Below are positions 628-58,038 of a stretch of DNA of 64,000 nucleotides, one piece after another (position 1 is the stretch's first letter; every line of letters begins with the position of its first letter). Origin of the DNA: Somniosus microcephalus. Taxonomy: Eukaryota. The stretch spans positions 42,842,001-42,906,000 of the forward strand of contig CM126203.1 in NCBI GenBank assembly GCA_052327205.1. The letters are read 5' to 3'. Under the pieces are notes generated by a model that worked only from the letters and a program-made list of their open reading frames with translations, made no database searches and was not told where the DNA came from. The translations under genes were made by a program, and so were the position numbers.

Positions 628-895
628 TGTTGGAGTCGCTAGAAATCAACAGGCTCTGAGACTTTTGTTGCAGCAAAGGCAAAACGCGTGTTACTTTATT
701 CACTCTCCATGAGGACTGAGGATCTCAGCCTTGTTGCAGGGCTATGATGTCATCACGCTACCGACGCATGACGTCATCACGCTACCGACGCTCTTAAAGG
801 GACCCTGCCCTAATAACCCAACCAAGTACGTACATATAACCACATTGGCTATACATTGTGAATTGTGTTATTGTCCCTATGTGGTCTCCGCCACA
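628..895 (-). repeat. 3' LTR of Gypsy element 628-5012
   Basis: Near-identical to 4702-5012, which carries an extra ~43-bp internal duplication. Confidence 0.95.
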
Positions 896-3800
896 TACGA
901 ACCCCCAGAGTTCACTAGCAATGGCAATGTCAGTCGTTGGGAGGGCCGGATCACACGGTCAGAACGGCTCCTCAATTCCGGGGCAGGGACCGGGGGGTTC
1001 GTTGGAGGGACCTCGGGCGCTCGGTGGTGGACTGAGGGTGCAGAAACCGGAGGTCGGCCCCGCCTCGGTGGCTGTGCCAACTCAACGGGTCGGTCCAGAT
1101 CCAGGTGGGCCGGCTTAAGACGGTCCACGGAAATGCAGTCCGGCTTACCGCCGACATCCACTACAAAGGTCTTGTCCCTGGTTTCCAGGACGCGGAATGG
1201 TCCATCGTAGGATGGCTGAAGAGGTCCCCGGTGGGCATCATGGCGGACGAAAACGTACTCCGCCGCACGAAGGTCGAGTGGAACGTGGGACTGCGGGAGG
1301 CCGTGCTGCGACGTGGGCACCGGCGTGAAAACCTTGGCGTTGTCCAGAAGGTCGGACCGCTGACGGGTTGCGGACCAAGGTTCCGTTGCGTTGGGGACAA
1401 AATCCCCGGGAACCCGCAGCGGCTGTCCGTAGACGAGCTCGGCAGACGAGGACTGGAGGTCCTCCTTGGGGGCGGTCCTGAGTCCCAGCATGACCCACAG
1501 GAGTCTGTCGATCCAACTGTCATCCCGGTGGCTGGCCCGGAGCGCGGCCTTCATGGAGCGATGAAACCGTTCGCACAGTCCGTTAGCCTGAGGGTGGTAT
1601 GCTGTGGTGCGGTGGAGTCTCAACCTGAGGCCTCGGACGACAGCGTTCCAGAGCTCCGACGTGAACTGGGGCCCCTGGTCGGAGGAAATGTCAGATGGGG
1701 CGCCGAACCGGGCGACCCAAATACTGATGAACGCCCAAGCCACATCGGCGGGCGTCATTGAAGACAGCGGGATGGCTTCCGGCCATCGGGTGGTTCTGTC
1801 GACCATTGTGAGGAGGTGGGTGAACCCGCGGGAGGGCGGCAGGGGCCCCACCAGGTCCACGTTAACATGGTCGAACCGCCTCTCGGGCACCGCGAAAGGC
1901 GCCAACGGGGCCTTAGTATGGCGATGCACTTTCGAGCGTTGGCATACCACGCAGGTGCTGGCCCAGTCGCGAACGTGCTTCCTAAGCCCGTGCCAGACGA
2001 ACTTAGCTGCCACCAGCTTCTGTGACAGCTTCCTGCCCGGGTGGGAAAGATTATGGATGGCGTCGAAAACTTGCCATCTCCACCCGTCAGGAGTGTGGTG
2101 CCGGCATTGTCGAACGTGGCGTCGGCTAGTTGAAGGCCCATGACCACCGTCCTGCAGGCCTGGACGTCCGGGTCGGAGGCCTGGTCGGCTGCCATGCGGG
2201 TGTAGTCGATGCCGAGGTGTACGGCACTGGTGACGGCTCGGGAGAGACAGTCGGCGACGGGGTTGTCCTTCCCAGCCACATGCTGGATGTCCGTTGTAAA
2301 CTCTGAGATGAAGGCCAGCTGGCGTTGCTGACGGGCCGACCATGGCTCAGAAGCTTTGGCTATGGCGAAGGTCAATGGTATGTGGTCCACGAACGCTGTG
2401 AACGGGCGAGCCTCCAGTAGGAAACGAAAGTGTCGGACGGCGAGGTAGAGGCTGAGAAGCTCGCGATCGAAGGTGCTGTACTTCCGCTCGTTGGGGCGGA
2501 GCTGCCGGCTGAAGAAGGCGAGTGGCTGCTAGATGCCGTTGACCCACTGTTCATGGACGGCGCCGACCACATAGCCCGAGGCGCCGGTGGTGAGAGCGAT
2601 CGGTGCATCTGGTAACGGATGCGCCAGCATGGTCGCATTAGCCAGGGCCCTTGTCGTGTCCGTGAAAGAATTGGCCATCTCCTCGGACCAGTCGACGGCG
2701 AGCTTGTCGGGCTTGCCTTTGAGGGCCTCGTCAAGGGGCCGCATAAGCTGGGCTGCTCGGGGGACGAAGCGATGGTAAAAGTTCACCATGCCCAAAAACT
2801 CCTGCAGGGCCTTCACGGTGAGGGGTCGCAGGAAGTCCATCATGGCCTCCACTTTCGATGGCAGTGGCACCGCCCCGTCCTTCGTGATGCGGTGCCCGAG
2901 AAAGTTGATCGAGGACAGCCCGAACTGGCACTTGGCCGGGTTGACGATTAGGCCGTGCTGGCTGAGGCGTTGGAAGAGAGTCCGAAGGTGCGACACATGC
3001 TCCGTCTTGGAGGCGCTGGCGATGAGGATGTTGTCCAGGTATATGAACAGGAATGTCAGGTCCCGTAACACGGTGTCCATTAGGCGTTGAAAAGCCTGGG
3101 TGGCGTTTTTGAGGCCGAATGGCATGCAGAGGAATTCGAACAGCCCGAACGGGGTGATCACCGCGGTTTTCGGGACGTCCTGCGGCCGGACAGGGACCTG
3201 GTGGTAACCCCGGATGAGGTCCACTTTCGAGAATACCACTTTCCTGGCCAGGCGGGCGGAAAAGTCCTGGATGTGTGGAATCGGGTAGTGGTCGGGGGTC
3301 GTAGCATCATTGAGGCGCCGGTAATCGTCGCACAGGCGCCACCCGCCACCTGGTTTCGGAGCGATGTGGAGGGGCGAGGCCCACGGACGGTTCGACCGGC
3401 GGATGATGCCGAGGTGCTCCATGGTGTCGAACTCGGCTTTAGCGATGGAGAGTTTCCCCGGGTCGAGGCGCCGAGCACGGGCGTAGACGGGTGGACCGGT
3501 GGTCGAGATGTGGTGTTCTACCCCGTGTTCGGTGGCGGCGGACGAGAACATGGGTTTCGTGAGGTCCGCGAACTTGGCGAGGAGGCGGGAAAACTCGTCT
3601 GAGGCCGAGAGTGCGCTGGACAACTTCGTCGTGCTGGACCCGCTAAGGGAACACGGGAGCGAGCTGAAAGTCTCAGCGTTGATGAGACGTCGGTTCTTGA
3701 CGTCCACCAAAAGGCCATTGTCGCAGAGGAAGTCAGCGCCGAGAAGGTGGGGTGGACACTTTTGCTGTGACAAAGTCCCAGGTGAACCGCTGCCCGCCAA

Positions 3801-4002
3801 AATAAAGCGCCATGCTCCGTTTGGCGAAGGTGCGGATGGAACTGCCGTTGGCAGCTTCGAGGACGGGGCCGTGGTTCCCCCCTTGCATGTCTATGGTTGA
3901 CGCGGGCAGGACGCTCACCTGGGCACCCGTGTCGCAAAGAAAACGACGTCCGGAGTCGGTGTCCGTAATAAATAACAAACTGCCTGAACGGCCGACAGCC
4001 AT
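877..4002 (-). pseudogene. pol: Gypsy pol (protease, RT, RNase H, integrase), frameshifted
   Basis: Protease FLCDTGAQVS (3733-4002). RT DYRRLN, MPFGLKNA, IYLDNIL (2529-3800). RNase H fragments. Integrase HVNVDLVGPLP, SDQGPQF, GLCERFHR and GPF module (877-2343). Domains are split across frames. Confidence 0.92.
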
Positions 4003-4245
4003 AGCAGCCGACGAGTGGTCTTTCGTTTGTTTCGACGCGGGAAAACTGCACGGGGGCCGGCACTTCCTGGCTTTGGGGCCGAACTGCGCGTGGTAGAAGC
4101 AGAGGCTTGGGGGCTGCCGCCGTTGGGCTGTATCGGTGGGGGCAGGGCTCCACGTGGCCGTGCAGTACTGTTGCCCGGCAGAGAAAAATTTGACGGCCTC
4201 CTTGGCCAGGTCACGGAAATCGGTAATGGAAGAGTTGGCTAAAGC

Positions 4246-4653
4246 CTACTGTACCTGACCTGGCAGCTGTTGAAGGAACAGTTCCTTGAAGAGGAAGCAC
4301 AGCCTGTGTGTGCCCAGGAGGGCCAGCATGTGGTCCATCAGCTCCGAGGGCTTGGAGTCGCCAAGCCCGGGTAGAGAGAGAAGCCGGCGTGCGCGCTCGG
4401 CTTCAGTGAGTCCAAAAGTTTCTAAGAGATGCGTTTTCAGCGTTTTGAATTTGTTGAGCTCCGGGGGGGTTCTGAGCAGGCTCATGACTCTGGCCGCGGT
4501 GGAGCTGATGAGAGCAGAGACGACGTAGTAGTACCTCGTGTCATCCGTGGTGATGCCCCGGAGTGCAAATTGAGCCTCGGCCTGGGCGAACCAAGCGACA
4601 GCCTGTCGTTCCCAAAACTCGGGTAATTTGATGGAAACACCGTTCGTCGCCAT
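4246..4653 (-). pseudogene. gag: Gypsy gag N-terminal part with premature stop
   Basis: MATNGVSIKLPEFWERQAVAWFAQAEAQF, starting ~47 nt after the PBS. TAG at 4246; gag-like sequence continues toward the protease. Confidence 0.85.
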
Positions 4654-4701
4654 TTCAGATGCGGTCTTTGGAATCGTCCAAAAGAGCAGCGGGGTCACCA
4701 A

Positions 4702-5012
4702 TGTTGGAGTTGCTAGAAATCAACAGGCTCTGAGACTTTTGTTGCAGCAAAGGCAAAACGCGTGTTACTTTATTCACTCTCCATGAGGACTGAGGTTCTC
4801 AGCCTCGTTGCAGGGCTATGACGTCATCGCGCTACCGACGCATGACGTCATCACGCTACCGACGCTCTTAAAGGGACCCTGCCCCGATAACCCAACCAAG
4901 TACGTACATATAACAACATTGGCTATACATAGTGAATTGTGTTTAGGTACATATAACCACATTGGCTATACATTGTGAATTGTGTTATTGTCCCTATGTG
5001 GTCTCCGCCACA
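4702..5012 (-). repeat. 5' LTR of Gypsy element 628-5012
   Basis: Adjacent to the PBS (4690-4700). Contains two TGACGTCA palindromes. Confidence 0.95.
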
Positions 5013-16210: not shown

Positions 16211-16443
16211 AATGAGCCTGAATGGCTCACAGGAAAGGCTTAACCACTCCCTCCTCTTTTGTTAGATCAGAAGACTGGTAATATTCCAGCCACCATCCTT
16301 TTGGCCGAACTATGCATCCCATCCCTTCTCCAGCTCTGCTTGCAAACTGAATTTTAAAGATTCACTTTAACTTAAATTTAACATTTCAACATAGATCATA
16401 CCCAAATCCTTATATGATAAAATAGTTGAAAATCCAAAAACAT

Positions 16444-18800
16444 GAGACTTCCGCAGTAGTAAAAGCAACGGGAGCGGCTGGAGAGCGCGAGACTTCGGCA
16501 GTAGTAAAAGCAGCGAGAGCGGCTGGAGAGCGCGAGACTTCGGCGATAGTAAAGCAGCGGGAGCGGCTGGAGAGCGCGAGACTTCGGCGATAGTAAAGCA
16601 GCGGGAGCGGCTGGAGAGCGCGAGACTTCGGTGGTAGTAAAGCAGCGGGAGCAGCTGGAGAGCGCGAGACTTCGGCGATAGTAAAGCAGCGGGAGCGGCT
16701 GGAGAGCGCGAGACTTCGGCGGTCGTAACAGCAGCGAGAGCGGCTGGAGAGCGCGAGACTTCGGCGGTAGTAAAGCAGCGGGAACGGCTGGCGAGCACGA
16801 GACTTCGGCGGTAGTAAAACAGCGGGAGCGGCTGGAGAGCGCGAGACTTCAGCGGTAGTAAAAGCAGCGAGAGCAGCTGGAGAGCGCGAGACTTCGGCGG
16901 TAGTAAAACAGCGGGAGCGGCTGGAGAGCGCGAGACTTTGGCGGTAGTAAAAGCAGCGAGAGCGGCTGGAGAGCGCGAGACTTCGGCGGTAATAGAAACA
17001 GCGGGAACGGCTGGAGAGCGTGAGACTTCGGCGGTAGTAGAAACAGCGAGAGTGGCTGGAGAGCGCGAGACTTCGGTGGTAGTAAAAGCAGCGAGAGCGG
17101 CTGGAGAGCACGAGTCTTCGGCGGCAGTAAAAGCAGCGGGAGCGGCTGGAGAGCGCGAGACTTCGGCGGTAATAGAAACAGCGGGAGCGGCTGGATAGCG
17201 CAAGACTTTGGAGGTAATAGAAACAGCGGGAGCAGCTGGAGAGCGCGAGACTTCGGCGGTAGTAAAAGCAGCGAGAGTGGCTGGAGAGCGCGAGACTTCG
17301 GCGGTAATAGAAACAGCGGGAACGGCTGGAGAGCGCGAGACTTCGGCGGTAATAGAAACAGCGGGAACGGCTGGAGAGCGCGAGACTTCGGCGGTAGTAG
17401 AAACAGCGAGAGCGGCTGGAGAGCGCGAGACTTCGGTGGTAGTAAAAGCAGCGAGAGCGGCTGGAGAGCACGAGTCTTCGGCGGCAGTAAAAGCAGCGGG
17501 AGTGGCTGGAGAGCGCGAGACTTCGGCGGTAATAGAAACAGCGGGAGCGGCTGGAGAGTGCGAGACTTCGGCGGTAGTAGAAACAGCGAGAGCGGCTGGA
17601 GAGCACGAGACTTCGGTGGTAGTAAAAGCAGCGAGAGCGGCTGGAGAGCACGAGTCTTCGGCGGCAGTAAAAGCAGCGAGAGCGGCTGGAGAGCACGAGT
17701 CTTCGGCGGCAGTAAAAGCAGCGGGAGTGGCTGGAGAGCGCGAGAGTTCGGCGGTAATAGAAACAGCGGGAACGGCTGGAGAGCGCGAGACTTCGGCGGT
17801 AGTAGAAACAGCGAGAGCGGCTGGAGAGCGCGAGACTTCGGTGGTAGTAAAGCAGCGGAAGCGGCTGGAGAGCGCAAGACTTCGGCGGTAGTAAAGCAGC
17901 GGGAGCGGCTGGAGAGCGCAAGACTTCGGTGGTAGTAAAGCAGTGGGAGCGGCTGGAGAGCGCGAGTCTTTAGCGGCAGTAAAAGCAGCGGGAGCAGCTG
18001 GAGAGCGCGAGACTTCGGCGGTATTAAAGCAGCGGGAGCGGCTGGAGAGCGCGAGTCTTCGGCGGCAGTAAAAGCAGCGGGAGCAGCTGGAGAGCGCGAG
18101 TCTTCGACGGCAGTAAAAGCAGCGGGAGCGGCTGGAGAGCGCGAGACTTCGGCGGTAGTAAAGCAGCGGGAGCGGCTGGAGAGCGCAAGACTTCAGCGGT
18201 AGTAAAGCAGCAGGAGCGGCTGGAGAGCGCAAGACTTCGGTGGTAGTAAAGCAGCGAGAGCGGCTGGAGAGCGCGAGACTTCAGCGGCAGTAAAAGCAGC
18301 AAGAGCTGCTGGAGAGCGCAAGACTTCGGCGGTAGTAAAGCAGCGGGAGCGGCTGGAGAGCGCGAGACTTCAGCGGCAGTAAAAGCAGCAAGAGCTGCTG
18401 GAGAGCGCAAGACTTCGGCGGTAGTAAAGCAGCGGGAGCGGCTGGAGAGCGCGAGACTTCAGCGGTAGTAAAGCGGCGGGAGCGGCTGGAGAGTGCGAGA
18501 CTTCAGCGGTAGTAAAAGCAGCGAGAGCGGCTGGAGAGCGCGAGACTTCGGCGGTAGTAAAGCAGCGGGAGCGGCTGGAGAGCGTGAGTCTTCGGCGGCA
18601 GTAAAAGCAGCGGGAGCGGCTGGAGAGCGCGAGACTTCGGCGGTAGTAAAGCAGCGGGAGCGGCTGGAGAGCGCAAAACTTCGGCGGTAGTAAAAGCAGC
18701 GAGAGCGGCTGGAGAGCGCGAGACTTCGGCGGTAATAGAAACAGCGGGAGCGGCTGGAGAGCGTGAGACCTCGGCGGTAGTAAAGCAACGGGAGCGGCTG
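16444..18800 (+). repeat. GC/CpG-rich minisatellite, 44-45 bp unit, about 52 copies
   Basis: Unit GAGCGGCTGGAGAGCGCGAGACTTCGGCGGTAGTAAA(A)GCAGCGG; runs directly into a CR1 5' UTR. Confidence 0.97.
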
Positions 18801-19206: not shown

Positions 19207-21480
19207 ACATAAGAAATAGGAAATAGGAGCAGGAGTAGGCCATACGGCCCCTCGGGCCTGCTCCGCCATTCAATAGGATCATGGCTGATCTGAATCTAGA
19301 CTCATGTCCACTTCCCTGCCCTGTCCCCGTAACCCCTAATTCCCTTATCTGCTAGGAAAATGTCTATCTCCATTTTAAATTTATTTAATGTTGCAGCTTC
19401 CACAGCTCTCTGGGGTAGCAAATTCCATACATTTACTACCCTCTGAGTGAAGAAGTTTCTCCTCATCTCAGTTTTGAAAAGGCAGCCCCTTATTCTAAGA
19501 TTATGCCCCCTAGTTCTAATCTCACCCATCAGTGGAAACATCCTCACCGCATCCACCCGATCAAGCCCCCTCACAATTCCTCTCATTCTTCTGAACTCCA
19601 ATGAGTAGAGTCCCAACCTACTCAACCTTTCCTCATACGTCAACCCCCTCATCTCTGGAATCAACCGAGTGAACCTTTTCTGAACCGCCTCGAGAGCAAG
19701 TATATCTTTTCTTAAATATGGAAACCAAAACTGCACGCAGTATTCCAGGTGTGGCCTCACCAATACCCTGTATAACTGCAGCAAGACTTCCCTGTTTTTA
19801 TACTCCATCCCCCTTGCAATAAAAGCCAAGATTCCATTGGCCTTCCTGATCACCTACTGCACCTGCATACTAACTTTTTGTGTTTCATGCACCAGGACTC
19901 CCAGATCCCTTTGTACTGTAGCACTTTGCAGTTTCTCTCCATTTAGATAATAACTTGCTCTTTGATTTTTTCTGCCAAAGTGCATAACCTCACACTTTCC
20001 AACATTATATTGCATCTGCCAAATCTCTGCCCACTCACTTAGCCTGTCTATGTCCTTTTGCAAGTTTTTTATGTCCTCCTCACTCACTGCTTTCCCTCCC
20101 ATCTTTGTATCGTCGGCAAACTTGGATATGTTGCACTCGGTCCCTTCCTCCAAATCGTTAATATAGATTGTAAAGAGTTGGAGTCCCAGCACTGACCCCT
20201 GCGGAACACCACTAGTTACTGATTGCCAGCCCGAGAACGAACCATTTATCCCAACTCTTTGTTTTCTGTTAGATAGCCAATCTTCCACCCATGCCAGTAT
20301 ATTACCCCCAATCCCGTGATATTTTATCTTGATCAGTAATCTTTTGTGTGGAACCTTGTCAAATGCCTTTTGGAAGTCCAAATACACTACATCCACTGGT
20401 TCCCCTTTATCCACCCTGTATGTTACATCCTCAAAGAATTCGAGCAAATTTGTCAAACATGACTTCCCCTTCGTAAAACCATGCTGACTCTGTCCTATTA
20501 AATTATGTTTATCCAAATGCTCTGTTACTGTATCCTTAATAATGGACTCCAACATTTTGCCAACCACAGATGTTAGGCTAACTGGTCTATAGTTTCCAGC
20601 TTTTTGTCTACTTCCCTTCTTAAATAAGTAAATAAGGGTGTTACATTAGCAGTTTTCCAATCTGCCGGGACCTTTCCTGAGTCCAGGGAGTTCTGGAAAA
20701 TGATCACCAATGCATCCACAATCCCTACCGCCACTTCTCTCAAGACCCTAGGATGTAGGCCATCAGGTCCGAGGGATTTATCCACCTTAAGTCCCATTAT
20801 TTTACTGAGTACCATCTCCTTAGTGATTTTAATCGTGTTTAGCTCCTCCCCCCCCCCACCCCCATTGCCCCCTGTTTGTCCAGTGTTGGGATATTTTTAG
20901 TGTCCTCTACTGTAAAGACTGATACAAAATATTTGTTCAGTGTCTTTGCCATCTCCATGTTCCCCACCACTAGTTTCCCAGTCCCATCCTCTAAGGGACC
21001 AACGTTCACTTTAGCCACCCTTTTTCTTTTTATATAGCTGTAGAAACTCTTGCTATCTGTTTTTATATTTTTTGCTAGTTTACTTTCATAATCTATCTTC
21101 CCTTTCTCAATTAATCTTTTAGTTATTGTTTGCTGGCTTTTAAATGCTTCCCAATCTTCTATCCTCCCACTAGATTTGGCTAATTTATATGCCCTTGTTT
21201 TCAGTCGAATACTATCCTTTATTACTTTACTAAGCCACGGATGGCTGTCTTTTCTTTTACTCCCCTTTTTCCTCAGTGGAATATATTTATCTTGAAAGAT
21301 GTGAAATATCTCCTTGAATGTAGACCACTGCTCTTGTACCGTCTTGCACTTTAATCTGTTTTCCCAGTCCGCTTTAGTCAATTCTACTCTCATACCTTCA
21401 TAGTTTCCTTTATTTAAGCTTAGTACGCTGGTTTGAGATCCAACTCTCTCACCTTCAAGCTGAATTTGGAATTCAACCAT
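19207..21480 (-). mobile_element. 5'-truncated CR1 inserted antisense in ORF1 of the host CR1
   Basis: RT ORFs 19302-19853, 19854-20567, 20573-20815, 20839-21480; 3' tail at 19207-19230. Host ORF1 rejoins in frame across it; possible CTT TSD. Confidence 0.92.
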
Positions 21481-23568
21481 CTTGCAGTCAAGAAGACCAC
21501 ATGTGTGGTAAGTGCCAATGGTTTCGCCAACTTGAGATCCAGTTTTCGGAGCTCGAGCGTCAGCTGGAGGCACTGCGGTGTATCCGCGAGGCTGAGAGCT
21601 ACGTGGATAGCACGTTTTTTAGACGTGGTCACCCCACAGCTTAAGAAAGTGCAGTCAGAGAGGGAATGGGAAACCACCAGTCAGAAGAAGGGGGGGGCAG
21701 GCAGGTAGTTAGGAAAGCCCCAGAGTGCATCTCACTCAACAACCGGTTTTCTGTGTTGGAAAATGGTGACAGTAACGGTTCCTCTGGGGAGTGCAGCCAG
21801 AGCCGTGTTCACGGCACTGTGGGTGGCTCAGCTGCACAAGGGGGGAGGAGTAAGAGTGGAAGGGCAATTGTAGTAGCAGACTCAATAGTGAGGAGTGCAG
21901 ACAGGCGTTTCTGCGGCCGCAGACGTGACTCCAGGATGGTATGTTACCGCCCTTGCCAGGGTCAAGGATGTCACTGAACAGCTACAGGGCATTCTGAAGG
22001 GGGAGGGTGAACAGTCAGAGGTTGTGGTTCACATTGGTACCAACGACATAGGTAGAAAGAGGGATGAGGTCCTGCAACAAGAATTTAGGTAGCAGATTAA
22101 AAAGCAGGACCTCAAAGGTTGTAATCTCTGGATTACTCCCGGTGCCACGTGCTAGTGAGTATAGGAATAGGAGGATAGAGCAGATGAATGCGTGGCTAAA
22201 GAGTTGGTGCAGGAGGGAGGGCTTTAGTTTCCTGGATTGCTGGGTCTGCTTCTGGGGAAGGTGGGACCTGTACAAGTCGGACGGGTTGCACCTGAACCGG
22301 AACGGGACCAACATCCTTGCGGGGAGGTTTGCTAGTGCTGTTGGGGGGGGGTTTAAACTAACTTGGCAGGGGGATGGGATACGGAGTGGAGCTATAGTAG
22401 GGGGTGATGCACAGCCAAATATAGAGGGAAAAAAACAAGTCAGTCTGGAAGGCAGAGCAAATATGTAATAGTACAAGGGAGTATGGCAAGGCTGGATGGC
22501 ATTTATTTTAATGCAAGGAGTCTTGCGAGTAAGGCAGATGAATTGAAGGTGTTAATGAACATATGGGAGTATTATCTTATTGCTATCACAGAGACATGGT
22601 TGAGGGAGGGGCAGGACTGGCAGCTCAATATTCCAGGGTATAGAATCTTCAGGTGAGACAGAGGCGGGTGTAAAAGAGGAGGGGGTGTCGCAATATTAAT
22701 CAAGGAGTCAATTACTGCAGTAAGGAGGGATGATATCTTAGCAGGTTCCTCTAATGAGGCCAGATGGGTAGAACTTAAAAACAAAAAGGGGGCAAGCACT
22801 TTGCTGCAAGTGTACTATAGGCCCTCAAACAGTCAGGGGGAGATAGAGGAACAGATATGTAGACAAATCTCAGAGAAGTGTAGAAATAATAGGGTAATAA
22901 TAGTAGGTGATTTCAACTTCCCCAATATTAACTGGGATAGTCAGAGTGTGAAAGTCTTAGAGGGTGCAGAATTCTTAAAGTGCATCCAGGAGAGCTTTTT
23001 GAGCTAGCATGTAGAAAGTCCTACAAGAGAGGGGGCGATACTGGACCTAATTCTAGGGAATGTAGCCGGGCAAGTGGTAGAAGTGTTAGTAGGAGAGCAT
23101 TTTGGTGACAGTGACCATAATTCGGTGAGATTTAAAGTAGTCGTGGAAAAGGACAAAGATGGACCGGAAATAAAGGTTCTAAATTGGGGGAAGGCCGATT
23201 TTAATATGATAAGGCAGGACCTGGCCAAAGTGGACTGGGATCAGCTACTTGTAGGAAAATCTACATCAGAGCAGTGGGAGTCATTCAGAAAGGAAATATA
23301 GAGAGCACAACGCCAACATGTTCCCGTAAAGGTCAAGGGTGGGACCAACAAGCCCAGGGAACCCTGGATGTCAAGGGATATACAAGAATGGATTAGGAAA
23401 TAAAGGGAGGCTTTTGGCAGATACAAAGGACTAAAAACAGTGGAAGCCCTAGAGGAGTATAGAAAGTGCAGGGGGGTACTTAAAAAAGAAATTAGGAGAG
23501 CGAAGAGGGGGCATGAAAAAACACTGGCGGGCAAAATAAAGGAAAATCCCAAGGTGTTTTATAAGTAT

Positions 23569-26500
23569 TGACATAAGAAAACTACGAAGCACTTGGTTTG
23601 AGTATAAAACAAGGCTTTAATCAACTGTTTCACAACCATGAGCTCTAGTTACATCACTAGTTCCTGGTTACAAAAACGTCCTGAGCAAGCTGGGCCCACG
23701 CCCGAGTATTTATACTTTCCTTGGACGGCGCCACCAGCTGGCCGCCCAGTGTTATCTCATGAGTCATTTCTACATGAATGGTAAGATTAATGACATTCTT
23801 CCCACCTGAAAGATTTGGAAGTCCCGCGACTTCCTTCTAGAGGATATAACGGACCATGAAGAGCCGCAGTCATTTCGATTTCTGTTTGTGGCTGGAAGGC
23901 ACATCTCCTTGGACCGTGTCTTGGTCCCTGGATCGCTTGATTCGTACAGGTAGGTTGACCGGGCCTGTGTCGCCTTGATCGATCTGAGGGGGACTGGGGA
24001 GATCATCACTCTGGGTACGGGTCCCCACAGGCGCAGAGCTGGCTTCATCTTGCTTGGTAGCTGGTGATTGTCCGGCGTCCTGGCTTCGGGTGGCCATCCC
24101 GTGGGGAGCGCTCTGCTCCCCGAGTTGATTCAGTGAAGTAGCCGGCAGATCCCTTGATGTCCCGGGTAGGGTGTCATCCTCAAAGGAGCGCAGAGTGTCA
24201 GCATCATTATTATGGATCCCTCTATCGGTGGGGTCCGTGGGACTGGTTGGACAGGGAGCCAGATCTCGGAGTGAAATGGTGGACTGCCGGCCATCAGGGT
24301 ACCGCACGTGCGCATATGTGGGATTAACGTCTGTTAGTTCCACCACGTCGATGGTATCATTCTTGGAAGAGCGAACGAATCTTCGGAGCAGCACAGGGCC
24401 GGGAGCTGCCAACCATGATGGTAGGGACGTCCCATGAGCGGTGCAACACTGGAACCCGAAGAATCGTTCGTGAGGAGTAACTTTGGTGGACATAGAAAGA
24501 AGAGACCTGATGGAATGCAACATGTCAGGGAGCACAGTTTCCCACTGCTGGTCTGGTAGATTGCGTGACCTCAGTGCAAGACAAACAGCGTTCCAAATGA
24601 TAGCGTTGTATCTCTCAACCTGTCCGTTACCGATGGGATGATACGATGTCATTTTACTTGTGGCGATTCCCCGTTGAGAAAGATAACTTTTGAGTTCGCT
24701 TGACATGAAGGAGGGACCCCGATCAGAGTGGATGAAATTGGCCGTACCGCAAAGGGGAAAGACCTGATCGAGGCATTTGATCACTGTGGAAGTAAGCATA
24801 TTGGTACAGGGGAAAGCAAAGGGAAAGCATGAATATTCGTCCACCATAGTAAGCAAGTAGGTGTTTCGCGTTAAGGAGGGCAATGGCCCTTTAAAGTCAA
24901 TACTGAGTCACTGCATAGCGTGTATGAGCGAGCCATCCGACGGACGGAAGAATTGCGGTTTAAATTCCGCGCAAATTCTACAAGTGGAACATGTTCTTTT
25001 CACGTCTTCCGTAGAAAATAGGAGATTTTTAGATCACACAAAGTGCAACATACGGGTAACGCCAGGATGGCATAAGTCAGTATGAAGATCCGCAAGAGTC
25101 GAAGTTGACATCGAAGAGCAGAATGCATGCGTGAGGGTATCCGGGGCCACATTCTTTTTGCCTGGTCGATAATGTATGGTGTAGCCAAAGGCAGCCAATT
25201 CCATCCTCCAGAGCTGTATTTTGTTATTCTTGATCTTATTGCGTTTCCGGTTATCCAGCATAAAGGCCACGGAGCGCTGATCGATTATAAGCGTGAAATG
25301 GCGACAAGCGAGAAAATGACTCCATTTACGTACTGCTTCGATGATAGCCATAGCCTCCTCGGAGGAGGATAATGGAGCTTGCTACCCTGCAAAGTTCTGG
25401 ACAGAAATGCAACGGGTCAACCACCTTGATTCAAGGTAGCCGAGGTCGCCACCTCCGATGCATCGCACTCGCCCACGAAAGGGAAATTTTCATTGATGGA
25501 ACGAAGCGTGGCCTTTTCCAGTTGTCGCTTGAGGAGGTTAAAAGCTGAAATAACCGTTGCCTCCAACGGAAATGACTTCGCGTGAAGCAGGGGCTGGACC
25601 TTGTCGGAGAAGTGGGGTATCCACTTCGTATAATAGGTGAACATGCCGAGTGCCCGACGAATAGAGCCGAGATTCGTAGGGGGAGCGAGCTCCTGAAGTG
25701 GACGAAGTCGCTCCGGATTCAGTTTGATGACACCATTGCCCACCCAGTAGCCAAGAATGTTGACTGATGGTACTCATTTCACAGATTTGGACTCATTTAA
25801 GGTTAAGTTGCGACGACGGAGAACGTCAAAAAATTTCTGGAGGTTGGCATCATGCTCCTTCTGGTTATGACCAGCAATGGTGATATTATCCAGATATGGA
25901 AAAGTGTCCGTTAAGTTCTCCTGTTTGACTAGGCTATCCATTGCCCATTGAAAGATGGCCACCCCATTGGTGACCCCAACTGGAAGGAGACAAAACTGGT
26001 AAAGCCGATCATTGGCCTCAAAGGCCGTATACTTTTTGTCAGAGTCTTTTAATGGTACTTGATGGTACGTGCTCTTTAAGTCAAAAGTTGAAAATACCTT
26101 GTAGTTGGCAAGGTTATTGACCATGTCATCGATGCGTGGTAGTGGGTAGGCATCCAGGTCGGTATACTGGTTAATAGTTTGTGAGTAATCGATGCAAAGA
26201 TGTTTCATGTGTTGCTTCAGACGATTTTTAACAATGACGACTTGAGCCAGCCAGGGAGATGAACATGGCTCAATGATACCGTCAGCTAGAAGGCGAGAGA
26301 TCTCTGCCTCATTGAAGGATAGATCATCTTGGCTGAAACGTCGTGATTTAGTGACTATGGGCTTACATCGAGGGGAAAGATTGGCAAACAAGGAGGGCTC
26401 GTCGAACGAAGTCGCCGAAAGCGCACAAACCGGTACTTTGGAAACAGTAAGCTCCGGCTTTGACCCTCCAAACTCGAAAGTGAGTCTTTTGTGTTGTTTC

Positions 26501-28341
26501 TGGAAATCCTGTCCCAGGAGCACATCACTGCATAGGTTTTTGAGCACCCCGAGCCGGGTGGAGAAATATGTGTGGCCATTGAGAATAAGGTCAACAAGAC
26601 AAAAGCCGGAAGAGTTGGTGGTCAATGTCGTCAGAGCCATTGCAATTTCCCTGTCCGAGGGGTAAATACGCAGTTTTAACTTACTGACAGCCCACTCACT
26701 AATGAAGCTGTCAGAGCTGCATAGTCGATTAGTGCACTTAAAATGTGTCAATTTACCGAAACCTTCGTGGCTGCATGGGACAGACTTTGGGGAAAAACAG
26801 CTGTGATGGGAGGAGGAGCAGTTTTACCCTTGACAGCTGTAACCTTAGTAGTGGATCTTGGGGGCGGAGCAGTTTTATAGATAGTAGCTGCAAAACTAAC
26901 AGGGGCTTTTGACCGGTATACCTTAGAAAAGTGGCCTTTCTTACTAACAGAGGCTCTTGACTGGCATACTTTAGAAAAGTGACCTTTCTTACTGCAATGA
27001 TTGCAGGTTGCGTTAGGAGCAGGACAAAATTTCCTGTAGTGGAATGTACCTCCATAGAAGAAACACTTCCTTCCAGATTGCCAAGATGCCGCTAGGGCAG
27101 GGTTATCATCAGTGAAGGCTTCTAGGGTAGGGTTGTCATCAGCTAGGTGATGCGCTATCAACAATACCAAAGACTACGAGATGGACTTAAATGAAGTAGG
27201 CTTTTATTGACTAAGAACTAGAGCATGCCTCTGCTAGTGAATCCATCCTAAGAGCTCTCGGGGGAAGGGTGGTGAGTCACCTTTATACCCAGGCTTAGGG
27301 GTGGAGCCAGGGGCTGAGACATGCCTGGACTTGTACAGGGTTAACAGTGGTTTACCACACAGGCATGTACAGGTTAACAGTGGTTTACCACACTAGGTTA
27401 GAGTCATCATCAGTGAGGGCTTCCACCTGATGCCTATCGAAGGAGTCACTAAAAGTGATAGCAGCAGCCCATGCACGTGGTAAAAGATAGGTATCTGCAT
27501 TCCTTTTTGCTAAGTCCAGAGAACATGCCTGGTCATAGGCAGCCTGTAACTCGAGGGTTTTATTCTCCAACAGACGCTGGCGTACGAAGGGAGACGCAAT
27601 CCCATTAATAAAGGAATCACGAATTAACTCCTTCTGGTACTGCTCAGCTGTGACAGCTTTAAGATTACAATCCTTGCTGAGCCTGCGAAACTTTGAAGGA
27701 ATTCGTTAAGTGATTCCCCGGGTTGTTGTCGAGTTGTGGCCAGTAGATGCCGAGCAAAAATTTTGTTTGGAGCCTTAACACATAGTCGCTGTAATATTAG
27801 GATAGTGGAGTCATAGTCTACACAGTCTTTGATATAGTCAAACACATGAGGAGATACATAATTGGCAAGTATCTCTAATTTATCAGGAACATTCTCACCA
27901 CACACCCTGAGGAAGTTGCTGAAGGTGCGATACCAGTGTTTCCATACCTTAGCTGTTGTAGGTGAATTCGGGTCCTGGTCAAGATGGGCAGGTCTGAGTA
28001 GTTTGTCCATGATGGATTGATTACTACGTCGGAGTTCCCTTCTACAGTTGAAGTCGTAGCTGGCTGTTCCCGAAATCACTCAGAGCGTGGAGCCGATACA
28101 CAGTTGATTAAATTGGCGTAAGAAAACTACTGAGCACTTGGTTTGAGTATAAAACAAGGCTTTAATCAACTGTTTCACAACCATGAGTTTCTAGTTACAT
28201 CACTAGTTCCTGGTTACAAAAATGTCCTGAGCAAGCTGGGCCCATGCCCGAGTATTTATACTTTCCTTGGACGGCGCCACTAGCTGGCCGCCCAGTGTTA
28301 TCTCATGAGTCATTTCTACATGAATGGTAAGATTCATGACA
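23569..28341 (-). mobile_element. Full-length Gypsy LTR retrotransposon (second lineage), decayed, inserted in CR1 ORF2
   Basis: LTRs 23569-23795 and 28114-28341 (TG..CA); 5-bp TSD AGTAT; PPT AGGTGGGAAGAA. gag MDKLLRP..WKHW with CNHCSKKGHFSKVC knuckle; RT YPLPRID/YLDNI; RNase H ECDAS; integrase HSDRGPSF/GQVERYN. Confidence 0.95.
27148..27392 (-). mobile_element. Solo LTR of another LTR family inserted in gag
   Basis: TG...CA ends; TSD CTAGG (27143-27147, 27393-27397). Removing it restores gag frame DDDSNLADDNPTL. Short internal duplication near the right end. Confidence 0.88.
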
Positions 28342-29752
28342 AGTATATTAAGGGCAAGAGGACAACCAGGGAAAGAGTAGGGCCCATCAGGGACCAAAGT
28401 GGCAATCTGTGTGTAGAGCCGGACGATGTAGGTGAGGTTTTAAATGAATATTTTGCATCTGTGTTCACTATGGAGAAGGACAAAGTAGGCATAGAAATCA
28501 GGCAGGGGGATTGTGATATACTTAAACAAATTAGCATTGAGAGGGAGGAGGTACTAGCGGTTTTAGCGGGCTTAAGAGTGGATAAATCCCCAGGCCCAGA
28601 TGAAATGTATCCCAGGCTGCTGTGTGAGGCAAGGGAGGAGATTGCAGGGGCTCTGACACAAATTTTCAGAACCTCTCTGGCCACAGGGGAGGTGCCAGAG
28701 GACTGGAGGACAGCTAACGTAGTACCATTATTCAAGAAGTGTAGTAGGGATAAACCAGGGAATTACAGGCCAGTGAGCCTAACATCAGTGGTAGGGAAAT
28801 TATTGGAAAAATTCTGAGGGACAGAATTAGTCTCCACTTGGAGAGGCAAGGATTAACCAAGAATAGTCAGCATAGCTTTGTCAGGTGGAGATCATGTCTA
28901 ACCAATTTGATTGAATTTTTCGAGGGGGTGACTAGGTGTGTGGATGAGAGTAGTGCAGTCGATGTAGTCTACATGGACTTCAGTAAGGCTTTTGACAAAG
29001 TCCCGCATGGGAGACTGGTCAAGAAGGTAAGAGCCCATGGGATCCAGGGCAATTTGGCACATTGGATCCAAAATTGGCTTAGTGGCAGGAGGCAGAGGGT
29101 GATGGTCAAAGGTTGTTTTTGTGACTGGAAGCCTGTGTCCAGTGGTATACCGCAGGGATCGGTGCTGGGTCCTTTGCTGTTTGTAGTGTACATTAATGAT
29201 TTAGATATGAATGTAGGAGGTATGACCAGTAAGTTCGCAGATGACACGAAAATTGGTGGAGCGGTAAGTAGTGAGGAGGGAAGCCTCAGGCTACAGGACA
29301 ATATAGATGGGTTGGTCAGATGGGCAGAACAGTGGCAAATGGAATTTAACCCTGAAAAGTGTGAGATGATGCATTTTGGGAGGAATAACAAGGCAAGGGA
29401 ATACACAATGAATGGTAGGACCCTAGGAAGGACAGAGGATCAGAGAGACCTTGGTGTGCATGTACATAGACCCCTGAAGGCAGCAGGACAGGTAGATAAG
29501 GTGGTTAAAAAAGCATATGGGATACTTGCCTTCATTAGCTGAGGCATAGAATATAAGAGCAGGGAGGTTTTGATGGAGCTGTACAAAACGCTAGTTAGGC
29601 CGCAGCTGGAATACTGTGTGCAGTTCTGGTCGCCTCACTATAGGAAGGATGTGATTTCATTGGAGAGGGTGCAGAGGAGCTTCATCAGGATGTTACCTGG
29701 GCTGGAGCGCTTCAGCTCTGAGGAGAGACTGGACAGGCTGGTGTTGTTTTCC

Positions 29753-48994: not shown

Positions 48995-50965
48995 ATGGAG
49001 AGGGCCCGTGAACGAGCGCAGCGCTTCTCAGAGCATGCTCTGAGGGTGCTGATTAATGGTGTCGAAAACAAAAGAGAGATCTTGTGCCCGGACAGTGGCA
49101 AGAAGGCTCCCAGGAGCCAGTACAGGAAAGCCTGGAGGAAAATCGCCCGCAGGGTGTCATCCACCTGCGATGTCCCCAGGAGTGCGGACCAATGCCGCAA
49201 GAAGTACAACGACCTCACTCGGATGGTGAAGGTGAGTACCCTTTCCAGTGTCCTCCTCATCCTTGCATGTGCACCTCACATTATGGGCAAAGGGACCTCA
49301 AAGGACTAATGGGCAGCCCTCCTCCCGCAGCAATGGCACTGGCATGATCATCAATAGCACTTTCTGCACTTAACACACTGGCCAAGCTATTCGACCATGG
49401 GAGGCAGTGCACACAGCAACAGGGCACCACACTGGCCAAGCTATTCGACCATGGGAGGCAGTGCACACAGCAACAGGGCACCACACTGGCCAAGCTATTC
49501 GACCATGGGAGGCAGTGCACACAGCAACAGGGCACCACACTGGCCAAGCTATTCGACCATGGGAGGCAGTGCACACAGCAACAGGGCACCACACTGTACT
49601 TAGAGGCCGTCCTTTCTCTTGCAGGCCAAGCTGGCGCGGAATTTGAGGAGCCAGTCTGCCACCGGGGGAGGCCGTCCCCAGTACCAGGCGCTCAGTGAGC
49701 TGGAGGAGAGCGTGGCTCGACTCATGCGTGCCCGGGTGACTGGCCCTGTTGCGATCGGAGATGCGGACCCTGTACTGGGACCCACTGGTAAGGGCATGAC
49801 CGGTTGGACCTCTGTCGTTGCCCTTGCGCTTCAGATCTACATCCTTTCGCACTGACCGACAAATGCGCATAATGCCACCACTCAGGCCTCCCTCGCTGAC
49901 GCCCTGTCCTCACTCTAAAGCTACTCTTGTGCCTTCCTGCTTTCAGCTGGTGAGGAGGAGGTGGTCCCTGAAGCTCAGAGTGCCAGGCCCTTGGAGGAGG
50001 AAGACGACGAGGACCAGGAGGAAGGCGGCACATCGGGGGAACCCTCATCCGCGCCAGGGGATGGCAATGGAGGGGAGACGTCTGGCCTGCAGGAGAGCCA
50101 GGGGGAAGTGTTGCAGGGGAGGGCAGATCCTGGGCCCAGTGGGCTCGAGGCACGCGGGAAGGGTCCGGCAGCACGCCGGCCTTCTCCCCAGAGGGAGAGT
50201 CCGCCCTCCAGTCCGGAGACGGTCCTCGCCCAGGAGGTGCGCCTCCTCGATGAGATGTCGGCGGCATCTGAGCGGCGCCACCAGGAGTTCATGGGGGTTG
50301 TGCAACAGATGCCTCAGGCCATTGAGTCCCTGGCTCATAGTGTGGTCGCTATAGGGGAATCACAGGCCAGGGGGGTCGAACAACTCGCGGCAGCGCACGA
50401 CAGGGGTGTCCAGCAACTCGCGGCAGCCCAGGACGCGACTCGCGAGATGAGTGGTGCCGTCCAGGCACTGGCAGAGCTGATGCGGGCACATACCAGGGCA
50501 GTTCGGGCACTCACTTCTGCCACACTCGCTGTGGCGCGGAAGCATCGCCAGGGCACCCGCCGCCCTGCTGCAGCACAGTGGTCTGGCCTCCACCAGATTG
50601 CTGCGCTTGCTGCACTGCCAGCCCGGCCGAGTGCCAGTGTCTCTGGCGAGCAGCGCGCGCCTGCCATCAGCCAGCTTGCCCCCATTGGTGCAGCCGACAC
50701 TGCCACTCCCCCAGCCAAGGTGCGACGAGCTGCTGCTGAGACTGATGCTGGCCAGCCACAGCTGCAGCAGTCAGCAGCCGGCCCCTCCCGGGCCGGGCCT
50801 CGTCTAGGCCGACCCCCAAGGGCATCTGCCGACACGCATTGTGGCCCTCATGAGCCTTCCCCCAGCCTTGCCACACCCGCAGGGCCCAGGTTGAGGCGGA
50901 GCAGCAGGTCGGGCAGGGGCCAGAAAAGCCTGTCTAAGGACTCGCCCTCTCGGCACACCCATTAG
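48995..50965 (+). CDS. Harbinger Myb/SANT (trihelix) DNA-binding protein, 3 exons, ~472 aa
   Basis: Exons 48995-49231, 49625-49787, 49947-50965 with GT-AG introns in phases 0 and 1. Splicing gives one uninterrupted ORF: RFSEHAL...AWRKIA...QCRKKYNDL, TGGG motif, acidic tract, coiled coil. Confidence 0.85.
49374..49596. repeat. Four perfect 54-bp tandem units in Myb intron 1
   Basis: CACACTGGCCAAGCTATTCGACCATGGGAGGCAGTGCACACAGCAACAGGGCAC x4. Confidence 0.95.
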
Positions 50966-51340: not shown

Positions 51341-52522
51341 TCATTGCCACAGCCCATTCCCTGACAGGGGGGCCGAGAAGTGTCGATCAATAAGCCCCCG
51401 GCGGATGGCCCTTGGACCTTGTGGCTCCCTCCTGGGCTGGTACTCCTCCTCCTCCTCCTCCTCCTCATGGTCCTCCTGCTCGTCCTCCTGAGGTGGTGGT
51501 GCAATGTCAGGTGGCAGTGCCTGAGTCCTGCAGATAGCCAGGTTGTGCAGCATGCAGCACACGACGACGAACTGGGAGACTCTATCCGGCGAATACTGTA
51601 GAGATCCGCCGGAACGATCCAGGCAGCGGAACCGTTGCTTGAGGACGCCTATCATTTGCTCTATGATGTTCCTTGTGGCTTGATGGCTTTCGTTGTATGC
51701 CTCCTCCGCTGGGGTCCTGGGCGCGCGGAGCGGGGTCATGAGCCATGTACACAAAGGGTAGCCCTTGTCCCCGATAAGCCATCCCCTTGGTGGAGGCTGT
51801 GCCTCGAACATGTCAGCCACAGTAGTCTGGCGCAGGATAAATGCATCGTGGCTGCTTCCTGGGAAGCGGGCATTGACAGCTAGGATGCGCTGCCTGTGGT
51901 CACACACCAGCTGTACATTTAGGGAATGGTAGCCCTTCCGGTTGCGGTAATCCTCGGCATTGTGGATAGGTGCCCGCATAGCCACATGCGTGCAGTCAAT
52001 GGCGCCCTGCACCATGGGGAAGCGCGCGATCCTGGCAAATCCGACTGCACGCTGCTCCTGCCTCTGTCGGGTCATGGGGAAGGAGATGAATTGGTGTCTC
52101 CTCGCGAAAAGTGCATCGGTGACCTGCCAGATGCAGCGATGCGCGGCGAACTGGGAGATGTTCGCTATGTCCCCAGCAGCGGCTTGGAAGGAGCCGCTTG
52201 CATAAAAGTTCAGAGCCACCGTGACCTTCACTTCCACCGAGAGAGACGTCCTGCACATCAGCTGTGGACGCAGATCTCTGTGAAGCAGCTGGCAGATCTC
52301 TGCAAACACCTCCCTTCTGAAGCGCAGCCTCTTAACACAATGCGCCGCAGTCATGGTGAGATAGGACACCTGCTGCCGGTATTGCCTGAGTGGGTAAGGC
52401 CTACGTTGCCGACGCCTGATGGCCCCTCTGCGTCTAGGCATGGCTGGCCCTCTCTCACAGCGTCTGTGAGCCCTTCGCACATAATGCTGCAACTGAGGGT
52501 TGGACCCCCATACAGCCCCCAT
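51341..52522 (-). CDS. Harbinger DDE transposase (HARBI1-like), ~393 aa
   Basis: Uninterrupted ORF with ALNFYASGSFQ, GAIDCTH (D), NRKGYHSLNVQ, PGSSHDA, IGDKGY (D), RNIIEQMIGVLKQRFRCL (E), CCMLHN. Confidence 0.93.
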   Translation of the reverse strand: MGAVWGSNPQLQHYVRRAHRRCERGPAMPRRRGAIRRRQRRPYPLRQYRQQVSYLTMTAAHCVKRLRFRREVFAEICQLLHRDLRPQLMCRTSLSVEVKVTVALNFYASGSFQAAAGDIANISQFAAHRCIWQVTDALFARRHQFISFPMTRQRQEQRAVGFARIARFPMVQGAIDCTHVAMRAPIHNAEDYRNRKGYHSLNVQLVCDHRQRILAVNARFPGSSHDAFILRQTTVADMFEAQPPPRGWLIGDKGYPLCTWLMTPLRAPRTPAEEAYNESHQATRNIIEQMIGVLKQRFRCLDRSGGSLQYSPDRVSQFVVVCCMLHNLAICRTQALPPDIAPPPQEDEQEDHEEEEEEEEYQPRREPQGPRAIRRGLIDRHFSAPLSGNGLWQ

Positions 52523-54850
52523 AATAAAGTTGAAAACAGTGAAATCAAATGAATCAAATGTCAAAGCACTGGCCAGAAGCCAAAAATACCTCTCCTATGT
52601 TGTCCCAAATCAGTAAGCTCTGTCCCTTGGTCTCTGTCCAGAAATCCAAAGCAGTAAAGTCATTGCAGCAAAATGGCTGGGTTCTTTAGGTCAGTGTAAG
52701 TGCCCTTTAATTAGCGCTCCCCGAGGCCCACAGGGCCTCTGTTGCGTTCCACTTCACAGTTCTTAGCAGCGCCACGCCCACATTGGGCGGGCGCCACTGA
52801 ATTTCCGGTTTGGGGCGCACAAACAGCATTGCACGACGAGATGACGTCATAAGCTGCGCGCGCAGCTGAGCGGGCGCAAACACTTTGCGCCGGCGCTAAA
52901 TGTCAACTGAATTTGGGCGTTGGCGCAGATCGGTCTGCGCCCGGGCGCTAAGTGCCTAGCGCTGGAAATATACCCCTCTTATGGCGTTACCGGCTGGTGC
53001 AACCAACTGAATTTCTAGGCCAAAGTGAAAGGAAATCCTATTAAAAATGAATTAAACTGTCTGTGCAGCAATGCACACAGTGTCCGTAATAAAACAGGGG
53101 AGCTGGAGGCAATCATGTACTGGGAGGAACCAGACCGAGTAGGGATTACTGAGACATGGCTACAGAAAAATCAGGACTGGGAATTAAGCATTGCAGGGTA
53201 TAACATATTTAGAAAAGATAGAGAGAGAGAAAGGGGAGGTGGAGTAGCTGTACTTATTCGGGATAACATAATTGCAGTAGAAAAAAGGGACATAGCTATC
53301 AGCAAAACAAAAATAGAAACCACATGGCTAGAGATAAATGATCAATCACACTAATAGGCGTAGTCTACAGACCACCTAATAGTGGAAGGGAGGTGGAGGA
53401 AGAAATATACAGACAAATTAGAGAAATTAGTAAAAAAAAACATAGAATAATAATCATGGGGGATTTTAACTACCCTGATATTAATTGGACAGAAGAGGTA
53501 GGTAAAGGGGCTAAGAGAATGGATTTCCTACAATGTCTACAGGACACCTTTCTAACCCAATATGTAAAAAGCCCAACAAGGGAGGATTCACTATTGGAAC
53601 TACTTTTGTGGAATGAGCCAGAGTAGATAAGAGAAGTAAAAGTAGGGGAACATATAGGCAATAGTGACCATAATATATTACACTTTAAGATGATAATAGA
53701 GAAGGACATAAGTATGGCAAAAACCAGGCTAATAGATTGGAGAAAAGCTGATTTTGAGGGTCTGAGAATAAAATGGGCAGCAATATTGGCAAACAGTGAT
53801 GTAGAACGACAATGGGAAACATTTAAAAGGGCGTTCAATAGAGTGCAGGAAAAATGTATTCCACTAAAAGGAAACAACAAACTAAACACTAATGGGACTC
53901 CATGGATAAATAAAGACACAAGGGTACAATTGAGGGTAAGGAAAGAGGCATACATTAAGTACATAGACAGCAGAGGAATGCATGATAAGAGAGAATATGA
54001 AGGGATTAGGTAAGAAGTCAAAGAAACAATTAGGAAGGCAAAGAGGAACTATGAAATTAAATTATCAAGGAACATAAAACTAAATAGTAAAATATTTTAC
54101 AGACTAATGAATAAGGTCAGAGAATGCGGAGTCAGGGGACAACTAGCAGAATGGATTGCTAGCTGGCTTCAAGAGAGAAAGCAGAGAGTGGGAGTAAAGG
54201 GTAGCTATTCACAGTGGCAGATCGTGGGTAGTGGTGTTCCACAAGGAGCCATTTGTGCAGCTAATTCATCCACCTTATTGCGAATGCTCCTCGCATTAAG
54301 ACACACAGCCTTCAGGCTTGTTTATTTAACACTCTTAGACCTTTTAGAATTATTATTTACTGTGGCCCTGTTTGATTTACACCCTTGAATTCTCTGCCTT
54401 CCACTTTTGCTTTTCTCCTTCCTGACTTTTGCTTCTATCCTTGCTTCCCTTTCCTATGTCTCCCTGGGCCTTGGTGCCGGCCAAAATCCTCATCAGAGTA
54501 AATCAGGCAAGCTGCATTGGGGTGCTTCATTGGCGCCTGCAACTCACCTGATTTATTCTGATGAGGCTTGAGGATGAATTTACTTCGGTCCTTGGGCTTC
54601 TCCATTCCAAAATCAGGCCCAGTTTGGGGCACTAAGGAAAGTAGACCCCAATTTTGGCACAAGCCCCCAGATGTTAGTGCGGAGAACTTTGCATGGTCTT
54701 TTGTCGTGTCCAAATCCGATGCCAAGTGGTCCATCCGGTTTTATTCTTATTGCAATGTTTTGTCGGGGCTTGCTAACCCATTCCAGAGGGCAGTTAAGAG
54801 TCAACCACATTGCTGTGGATCTGGAGTCACATATAGGCCAGACCGGGTAA

Positions 54851-57800: not shown

Positions 57801-58038
57801 CTCATTATGAATTAGTTTGGCCCTTTGTGTTTCTCTCCTTTGCTTATTGCTTCTCACCTTTCTACCATCTATTTCTGACTTCATATGACTTCCCTCTTTT
57901 CCACTACCTAGGTTCCCATCCCCCTGCCAAATTAGTTTAAATCCTCCCGAACCGCCCTAGAAAATATTACCCCGAGGACATCGGCTCCCTCACAGTTCAG
58001 GTGTAGACCGTCCCCTTGGTACAGGTCACTCCTCCCCA
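54851..58038 (-). mobile_element. CR1 LINE, ORF1 end + nearly intact ORF2
   Basis: Endonuclease 56760-57884 (NARSI, ITETWL, MGDFN, SDH). RT 55712-56674 and 54974-55708, separated by one stop. (ATAGAAAC)n tail at 54851-54875. Confidence 0.95.

Follow-up and report, generated by a model that had tools for sequence, protein, structure and literature searches.

The Gypsy retrotransposons of the clade represented in the window (the 64,000-nt stretch of Somniosus microcephalus DNA that was analysed) likely use Tf1-like self-priming, as judged from sequence comparison. This reading was adopted because the pairing between the primer-binding site and the LTR was found clade-wide with two-sided changes, no TGG was present, the stem was nearly pure Watson-Crick, and it ended sharply. 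Exact complementarity was observed at an offset of one base from the LTR end and in the same pairing polarity as in Tf1/sushi, and it was conserved with different letters in 26 families. Self-priming had been claimed for the window element in a first-pass annotation, and covariation across the 26 families strongly supported this claim. The best full explanation, which we consider highly probable, is self-priming in which the LTR arm is the RNA 5' end, is released by RNase H, and is recopied as the primer.

The window element and its primer-binding site

The element was located on the minus strand at 23569..28341 (4773 nt), as were all of its features described below, and showed the order gag-PR-RT-RH-IN. 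Three-frame translation gave many stops and frameshifts, and the copy is dead. The 5' LTR (28114..28341, 228 nt, TG...CA) and the 3' LTR (23569..23795, 227 nt) were 96.4% identical over 223 nt. A 5-bp target-site duplication, ATACT, was found upstream (28342..28346) and downstream (23564..23568). The insertion point was confirmed by empty-site reads, and the target was another high-copy repeat. The limits of the LTRs were supported because the second LTR, the ATACT duplication, and the empty-site reads agreed. A polypurine tract (23796..23806) preceded the 3' LTR. The N-terminal part of gag was read over 106 codons (27693..28010), after which the frame broke. Protease and RT were found in an open frame at 25777..26823 (Pfam RVT_1, YLDNITI motif), and the integrase core and tail were identified with Pfam at 23873..24907. 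The TG...CA LTRs, the target duplication, the polypurine tract, and the PR-RT-RH-IN order were those of Ty3/gypsy elements, and the closest relative of solved structure was the Ty3 RT. Two short tandem duplications were also seen, one in gag (27395-27330, two near-identical units of ~33 nt) and another close to 26990-26900, where the zinc-knuckle region lies.

The primer-binding site TTTAATCAACTGT (28100..28112) was the exact 13-nt complement of an LTR arm, ACAGTTGATTAAA (28161..28173), and contained no TGG. It was separated from the LTR-terminal CA by one spacer base (28113), which was A in 22 of the 26 families. The two arms were 48 nt apart. The LTR arm, which is the predicted self-primer and the predicted RNA 5' end, had ATTAAA as its 3' end (28161..28166), likely the poly(A) signal. 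TATAAA (28255..28260) lay 87 nt upstream of the arm. A short hairpin starting with GCC was predicted directly after the arm (28134..28160); it adjoined the predicted cut and was the counterpart of the RCCT...AGGY stem of the relatives. The 13-nt complementarity, its coordinates and letters, the 48-nt loop, the ATTAAA in the arm, and the upstream TATAAA were all as first annotated. The absence of TGG after the 5' LTR was also confirmed, and the other Gypsy element of the window (628-5012) had a TGG-type site. In the duplex, the arm pairs by its 3' end with the side of the site nearest the LTR, so that extension of the arm would copy U5. The hairpin had been described as possible only at the 5' LTR. 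This was true of the local hairpin but not of the arm, of which an identical copy without a local partner is present in the 3' LTR (23616..23628) and would also be part of the transcript.

The 13-nt match with a 1-nt spacer lay within the range used to predict self-priming in plant elements, at least 10 nt of own-LTR complementarity 0-5 nt after the LTR, with no tRNA site. When the internal region was compared in the same way, none of 4278 20-mer windows matched the LTR beyond 9 nt. Shuffling of the LTR reached a 13-nt match in 4 of 20000 trials. A chance origin of the match was ruled out by these two results. The fold of the entire 221-nt region was unexceptional (z −1.47); what stands out is one stem, by its place and its perfect pairing, and not the 221-nt fold. 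An Rfam search of 27900-28400 gave no match. No tRNA was called in the window by ARAGORN, and its single call among 29 loci was doubtful.

Conservation and covariation in the clade

The RT query gave 488 relatives, and the gag query gave 1193 relatives at E ≤ 0.001. The few named relatives came from a fluke, a sea anemone, spiders, a crab, and a mantis shrimp, where they were known from protein matches alone. No relative was found in viral_contigs, and the ESM Atlas search gave only unnamed arthropod gag-like clusters. Loci were retrieved through an RT alignment. Of 545 confirmed metagenome matches, the best 80 were taken, and genome contigs contributed 10 more loci, which were evidently eukaryotic DNA inside prokaryote bins. 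Loci L081-L090 were animal-type Gypsy elements, several with both LTRs, in contigs labelled as bacterial MAGs, and this was likely host DNA contamination. A gag N-terminus match was present in 51 sequences including the window, and 47 could be scored after four with <120 nt upstream were removed. Clustering of the 44 stem-bearing copies at 80% identity over gag gave 26 families. Several loci were drawn from one assembly, and L016 and L017 shared flanks and were apparently the same insertion. Family-level counts therefore used one copy per family.

A perfect inverted repeat of at least 9 nt was found directly before gag in 44 of the 47 scorable copies. The other three were L050, a decayed member of the L022 family, and L004 and L009, which had no LTR before the called gag start. 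The LTR end obtained by self-BLAST of LTR pairs was within 3 nt of the CA anchor at 18 of 23 loci, and two of the five discordant loci had a 3' LTR truncated at the contig end. The site started one base after CA in 36 of 44 copies, as placed by the best stem. All 26 families had different primer-site 12-mers, and TGG at the site start was found in none of the 26. Family representatives matched their own LTRs over 10-18 nt (mean 14.3; 26/26 with at least 10). Matches across families showed a mean of 6.1 nt and a maximum of 12 (650 pairs, 26 of which reached at least 10).

Pairing was then counted by register position. At positions 1-10 of the 26 families, 255 of 260 pairs were Watson-Crick, 1 was G-U, and 4 were mismatches; here the best perfect stem defined the register, a choice biased toward Watson-Crick counts. 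Positions 11-13 were paired in 25, 25, and 23 families and positions 14-16 in 18, 17, and 15; from position 17 onward, pairing was seen in at most 9 of 26. Over the 8 positions past the first break, 56 of 208 were paired (27%), which was the cross-family level (1395/5200). Stems were longer (median 14-15) and more variable than the 11 of Tf1. Three or four Watson-Crick pair types occurred at nine of positions 4-13. G was present at position 10 in 24/26 families, and HAGTY with A at position 11 in 9/26.

Compensatory substitutions had been proposed as a check, and two-sided changes were indeed found within families, in addition to the pairing conserved across all 26. L026 differed from 8 family members on both sides at position 7, and L013 differed from L010 and L020 on both sides at position 9. 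In each case, the changed arm was present in both LTRs of the copy. One-sided breaks were seen in single copies (L015, L022, L040, and L083). In reads of the window family, about half varied at 28099-28101 among the differences listed (40 of 232), and a one-base insertion behind 28171 was present in 136 and 381 reads of two RNA runs. Together, these changes would restore a 13-bp stem, the reads being unphased.

The local hairpin directly 3' of the arm was also conserved. Its mean length was 4.1 bp against 2.8 in shuffled sequences, and 0 of 300 shuffles equalled it. The first bases past the predicted cut were GCCT in 15/26 families and ACCT in 4/26. Unlike the primer stem, this hairpin contained 18 G-U among 107 pairs in a search that permitted G-U.

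Several arrangements of the leader were observed. The longest leader was that of the window element (103 nt), and the clade leader to ATG was often <30 nt. In L003, L022, L025, L046, L061, and the L016 family, the primer site ended 0-2 nt before the gag ATG. The post-LTR leader of these families is therefore only 16-19 nt long, and the stem may extend over the surroundings of the start codon. L063 (138-246) carried the primer site twice in tandem, 56 nt apart, with both copies complementary to one LTR arm. At L015 (1169-11366), a clade member was nested within an LTR element bearing long repeats of ~1.4-1.9 kb.

Start site, poly(A) signal, and alternative explanations

According to the accessible text of PMC7175516, the PBS duplex of Tf1 is formed by the first 11 bases, and the RNase H cut falls between bases 11 and 12. 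In the clade, transcription would start with the AGTT of the arm 5' end or a few bases upstream of it, giving a primer of 11-17 nt. The element RNase H would cut between AAA and RCC, between the primer duplex and the small conserved hairpin; an RNase H domain was present in the intact relatives. The primer would remain on the cDNA and be copied back into the site during plus-strand synthesis. The Tf1 primer is reportedly retained on the cDNA and recopied as well. The match would stay perfectly Watson-Crick because the retained primer is recopied into the site. The far stem end would mark the RNA 5' end, because a recopied primer yields a near-pure stem that breaks off abruptly. Since pairing stopped sharply at 13-17 nt, the RNA 5' end is probably at the arm itself.

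This placement differed from the first-pass annotation, in which the partner arm lay ~85 nt past the TATA box instead of at the start site. That view was not upheld, because the TATA position was scattered and the pairing ended sharply. Of the 26 families, 8 had a TATA-like motif in the 140 nt upstream, at positions −18 to −131 and near −30 in only 3; for two families in this count, just 52-62 nt of upstream sequence were available. This result spoke against a conserved TATA position, which was rejected. The TATAAA at 28260 is unlikely to set the start site of the clade because TATA-like motifs were rare and scattered. Excerpts of PMC3601003 describe Mag A LTRs without a conserved TATA box and very short R regions in several groups. 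The G at position 10 and the HAGTY sequences described above lend indirect support to a start at the arm, but the strict initiator T[CT]AGT[TC] (Drosophila-type consensus, from the same excerpts) was present at position 11 in only 1/26 families. A splice-acceptor-like motif upstream of the arm was rejected, as it was not enriched (3/26 against a shuffled mean of 1.5 and maximum of 7).

A start ~30 nt after TATAAA (28260) would place the arm inside a long R. A single cut would then leave a primer that carries a long 5' tail, and concealment of the 5' poly(A) signal would depend on the hairpin. We consider this arrangement unlikely. The window LTR does contain a good TATAAA, and the hexamer was predicted to be paired in the 5' context, with a mean unpaired probability of 0.04 compared to 0.24-0.59 in the 3' context. 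A 5' poly(A) stem-loop has also been proposed for HIV-1 (PMC12789967, in part of its text). However, the rarity and scatter of the TATA-like motifs described above counted against it, and pairing was at background past 13-17 nt. In the standard scheme, a long-tailed primer would also be copied past the site, and an unmatched 3' end would be present at the second strand transfer.

RNA evidence came from two raw RNA runs chosen by species label, with reads placed at 80% likeness. Reads were found on both strands of the LTR, and gag reads were strand-skewed in one of the two runs. No pile-up of read ends inside the LTR was seen in the two runs, and no start site was obtained from them. Among the loose read ends listed for these runs, there was no poly(A) tail and hence no poly(A) site. 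RNA reads over the LTR were more abundant than those over the leader.

AATAAA or ATTAAA ended the arm in 16 of 26 families. The other 10 had no canonical hexamer in the arm, and 8 of these had none nearby. The alternation between AATAAA and ATTAAA, the two commonest signals, suggests a real signal. With self-priming from the arm as the RNA 5' end, R would be short and the hexamer would lie inside the primer, so that the overlap of primer and signal would result from the short R. Burial at the 5' LTR would follow from this layout and may help. In 15 loci with both LTRs, the predicted unpaired probability of the hexamer was 0.08 in the 5' context and 0.53 in the 3' context, similar to the trend of the window element. 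Burial of the signal by the hairpin at the 5' LTR is thus geometrically possible in the predicted structures.

A promoter or cap located nearby can silence a poly(A) signal. A cap located ~5-10 nt upstream of the hexamer may be close enough to silence the signal by itself, and no hairpin would be needed. A dual role of the stem, priming and poly(A) suppression, is possible, but in our estimate it is the less probable case. Where the signal lies in R, a retrovirus has to keep it silent at the 5' end, for which the HIV-1 stem-loop is one proposed means (PMC12789967 and PMC3694450, each in the text accessible). The clade resembled the HIV-1 polyA hairpin in having a poly(A) hexamer in a stem near the RNA 5' end. 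The HIV-1 hairpin is found at both ends, according to a portion of PMC2645353, whereas the local stem of the clade is predicted to be 5'-specific because its partner strand is outside the LTR.

Priming in trans was weighed against a local primer. The primer could be the arm copy of the 3' LTR, or short capped RNAs, from solo LTRs or terminated at the 5' LTR, that are trimmed to the hexamer. The arm ended in or at a poly(A) hexamer, canonical in the 16 families given above, the 3' LTR copy of the arm was identical, and the excess of LTR reads over leader reads is expected with many solo LTRs. Nevertheless, we regard priming in trans as quite improbable. The local partner was 24-87 nt away and should win kinetically, and the conserved hairpin next to the cut is in keeping with a structure in cis.

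It is more doubtful still that the hairpin regulates only 3'-end processing or translation while another RNA primes. Such a role would agree with burial of the hexamer being predicted solely at the 5' end, and with the stem of several families ending 0-2 nt before the gag ATG. However, the 3' arm began where a primer site must be, one base past CA (36/44 copies), and no other primer site was present. A regulatory stem tolerates G-U, as the neighbouring hairpin did (18/107), yet G-U was nearly absent from the primer stem, which was also kept in the 10/26 families without a canonical hexamer. Priming by a host tRNA or half-tRNA, with an incidental LTR match, is scarcely credible: half-tRNA priming is known in some copia lineages (PMC6317226, in part), but TGG was absent from 26/26 families, the 26 different sites each matched and covaried with their own LTR, and two-sided changes occurred within families, which argued for rejecting tRNA priming from sequence. 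The first-pass annotation had named two refuting outcomes, a leader matching a host tRNA and pairing that is not kept among family copies; as judged from the family sequences, both checks favoured self-priming.

Relation to known systems and other features of the window

The clade was similar to Tf1, Tf2, Tj1, Tosmo1-3, and Tf1/sushi in having an LTR-complementary site just past the 5' LTR and no tRNA site. The pairing polarity and the Gypsy domain order were also those of Tf1/sushi. The accessible part of 10.1101/2022.12.06.519325 places these elements among the chromoviruses and describes for them a chromodomain on the integrase and a pretzel of three duplexes. Six intact relatives in the clade had single frames of 950-1234 aa with protease, RT, RNase H, and integrase. 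No chromodomain match (E ≤ 0.01) was found in any of the six or in the window integrase frame. The duplexes that flank the primer:PBS helix in the pretzel, and that Tf1 requires, were not found: pairing of U5 with the leader was 5.85 against 5.83 in shuffles, and that of the loop with the LTR end was 4.54 against 4.81. The Tf1 pretzel was rejected for the clade because neither flanking duplex exceeded shuffles. Unlike Tf1/sushi, the clade had the small RCCT...AGGY hairpin at the predicted cut, stems of 10-18 nt, a primer ending in the poly(A) hexamer, arms 24-87 nt apart, and the short leader. The clade is probably not a Tf1/sushi element, because the six intact relatives had no chromodomain and no pretzel duplexes were found. 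Kinship with Tf1/sushi had been implied earlier; with chromodomain and pretzel missing, the likeness is one of mechanism only. In an RT tree of the window element, 26 relatives, and three other Gypsy RTs, which had no Tf1, sushi, or Mag rows, the window element and its relatives formed one group (100/99).

Other known systems showed partial likeness. Plant Tcn1 (gypsy) and TAR, Houba, and Osr-1 (copia) have at least 10 nt of LTR complementarity 0-5 nt past the 5' LTR, and their self-priming is a prediction only, according to excerpts of PMC6317226. They differ from the clade in lineage and host; Tcn1 sits with Tf1/sushi, and TAR is a copia element. In form, the clade resembled Mag A/B/C, CsRn1, and MolGy, short non-chromovirus Gypsy clades of metazoans, with which it shared a length of ~4-4.8 kb, LTRs of ~150-290 nt, and 5-bp duplications (PMC11117352, in the text accessible). 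It shared with Mag-type clades a single gag-pol frame of ~1200 aa (sizes from the same partial text) and no chromodomain. Mosquito Mag elements have tRNA-Leu, -Ser, and -Arg sites in the portion available of PMC3286476, whereas the clade had 0/26 with TGG.

To our knowledge, the Tf elements of fission yeast are the only ones in which self-priming has been demonstrated; for their chromovirus relatives and for some copia lineages of plants, it is a prediction. Repbase Reports has reportedly noted self-primed Gypsy families in fish and frogs. In the accessible text of the literature covered, with most subscription journals, Repbase Reports, and supplements outside its scope, no animal Gypsy clade other than chromoviruses was described as self-priming. 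The accessible parts of PMC4600332, PMC8220671, PMC6238403, PMC4131045, PMC2864245, and PMC5341516 likewise contained no such report. The present clade may be a large non-chromovirus animal Gypsy clade with self-priming independent of Tf1/sushi. In it, one 11-17-nt segment would be the start, the primer, and the poly(A) signal. Only at the 5' LTR would the duplex hide the signal, and the RNase H cut would fall right after the hexamer, at the junction with the small hairpin. This combined reading is tentative, and we give it somewhat less than an even chance.

If true, a widespread clade in animals that lacks both chromodomain and pretzel would add another case, probably of independent origin, in which tRNA priming has been escaped, and this might also be an escape from control by tRNA fragments. 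The hairpin of ~60-110 nt, with 26 natural variants, is tractable as a short RNA. It makes RNase H recognition in an RNA-RNA duplex testable, together with the primer site as a switch of the 5' poly(A) signal. Annotation pipelines that require a tRNA site miss or misannotate such elements.

Several other elements were observed in the window. The second Gypsy element, at 628-5012 on the minus strand, had two LTRs, the TGG-type primer site, and a 43-nt internal duplication in its 5' LTR. Its RT was distant, with at most 35% to the other tree rows. A 417-aa open frame with a DDE_Tnp_4 domain was found at 51341-52594 on the minus strand, which we take to be a Harbinger-type transposase. It was faced by a 348-aa open frame without a Pfam match at 49919-50965 on the plus strand. 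Pieces of non-LTR retrotransposons were present at 54974-57956, with endonuclease and RT at 55712-57956, and at about 19300-21600; a related non-LTR copy (about 70-73%) lay near 19579-20394. A tandem array of 44-45-nt units (16400-18800) extended over ~2.4 kb and contained long minus-strand open frames.
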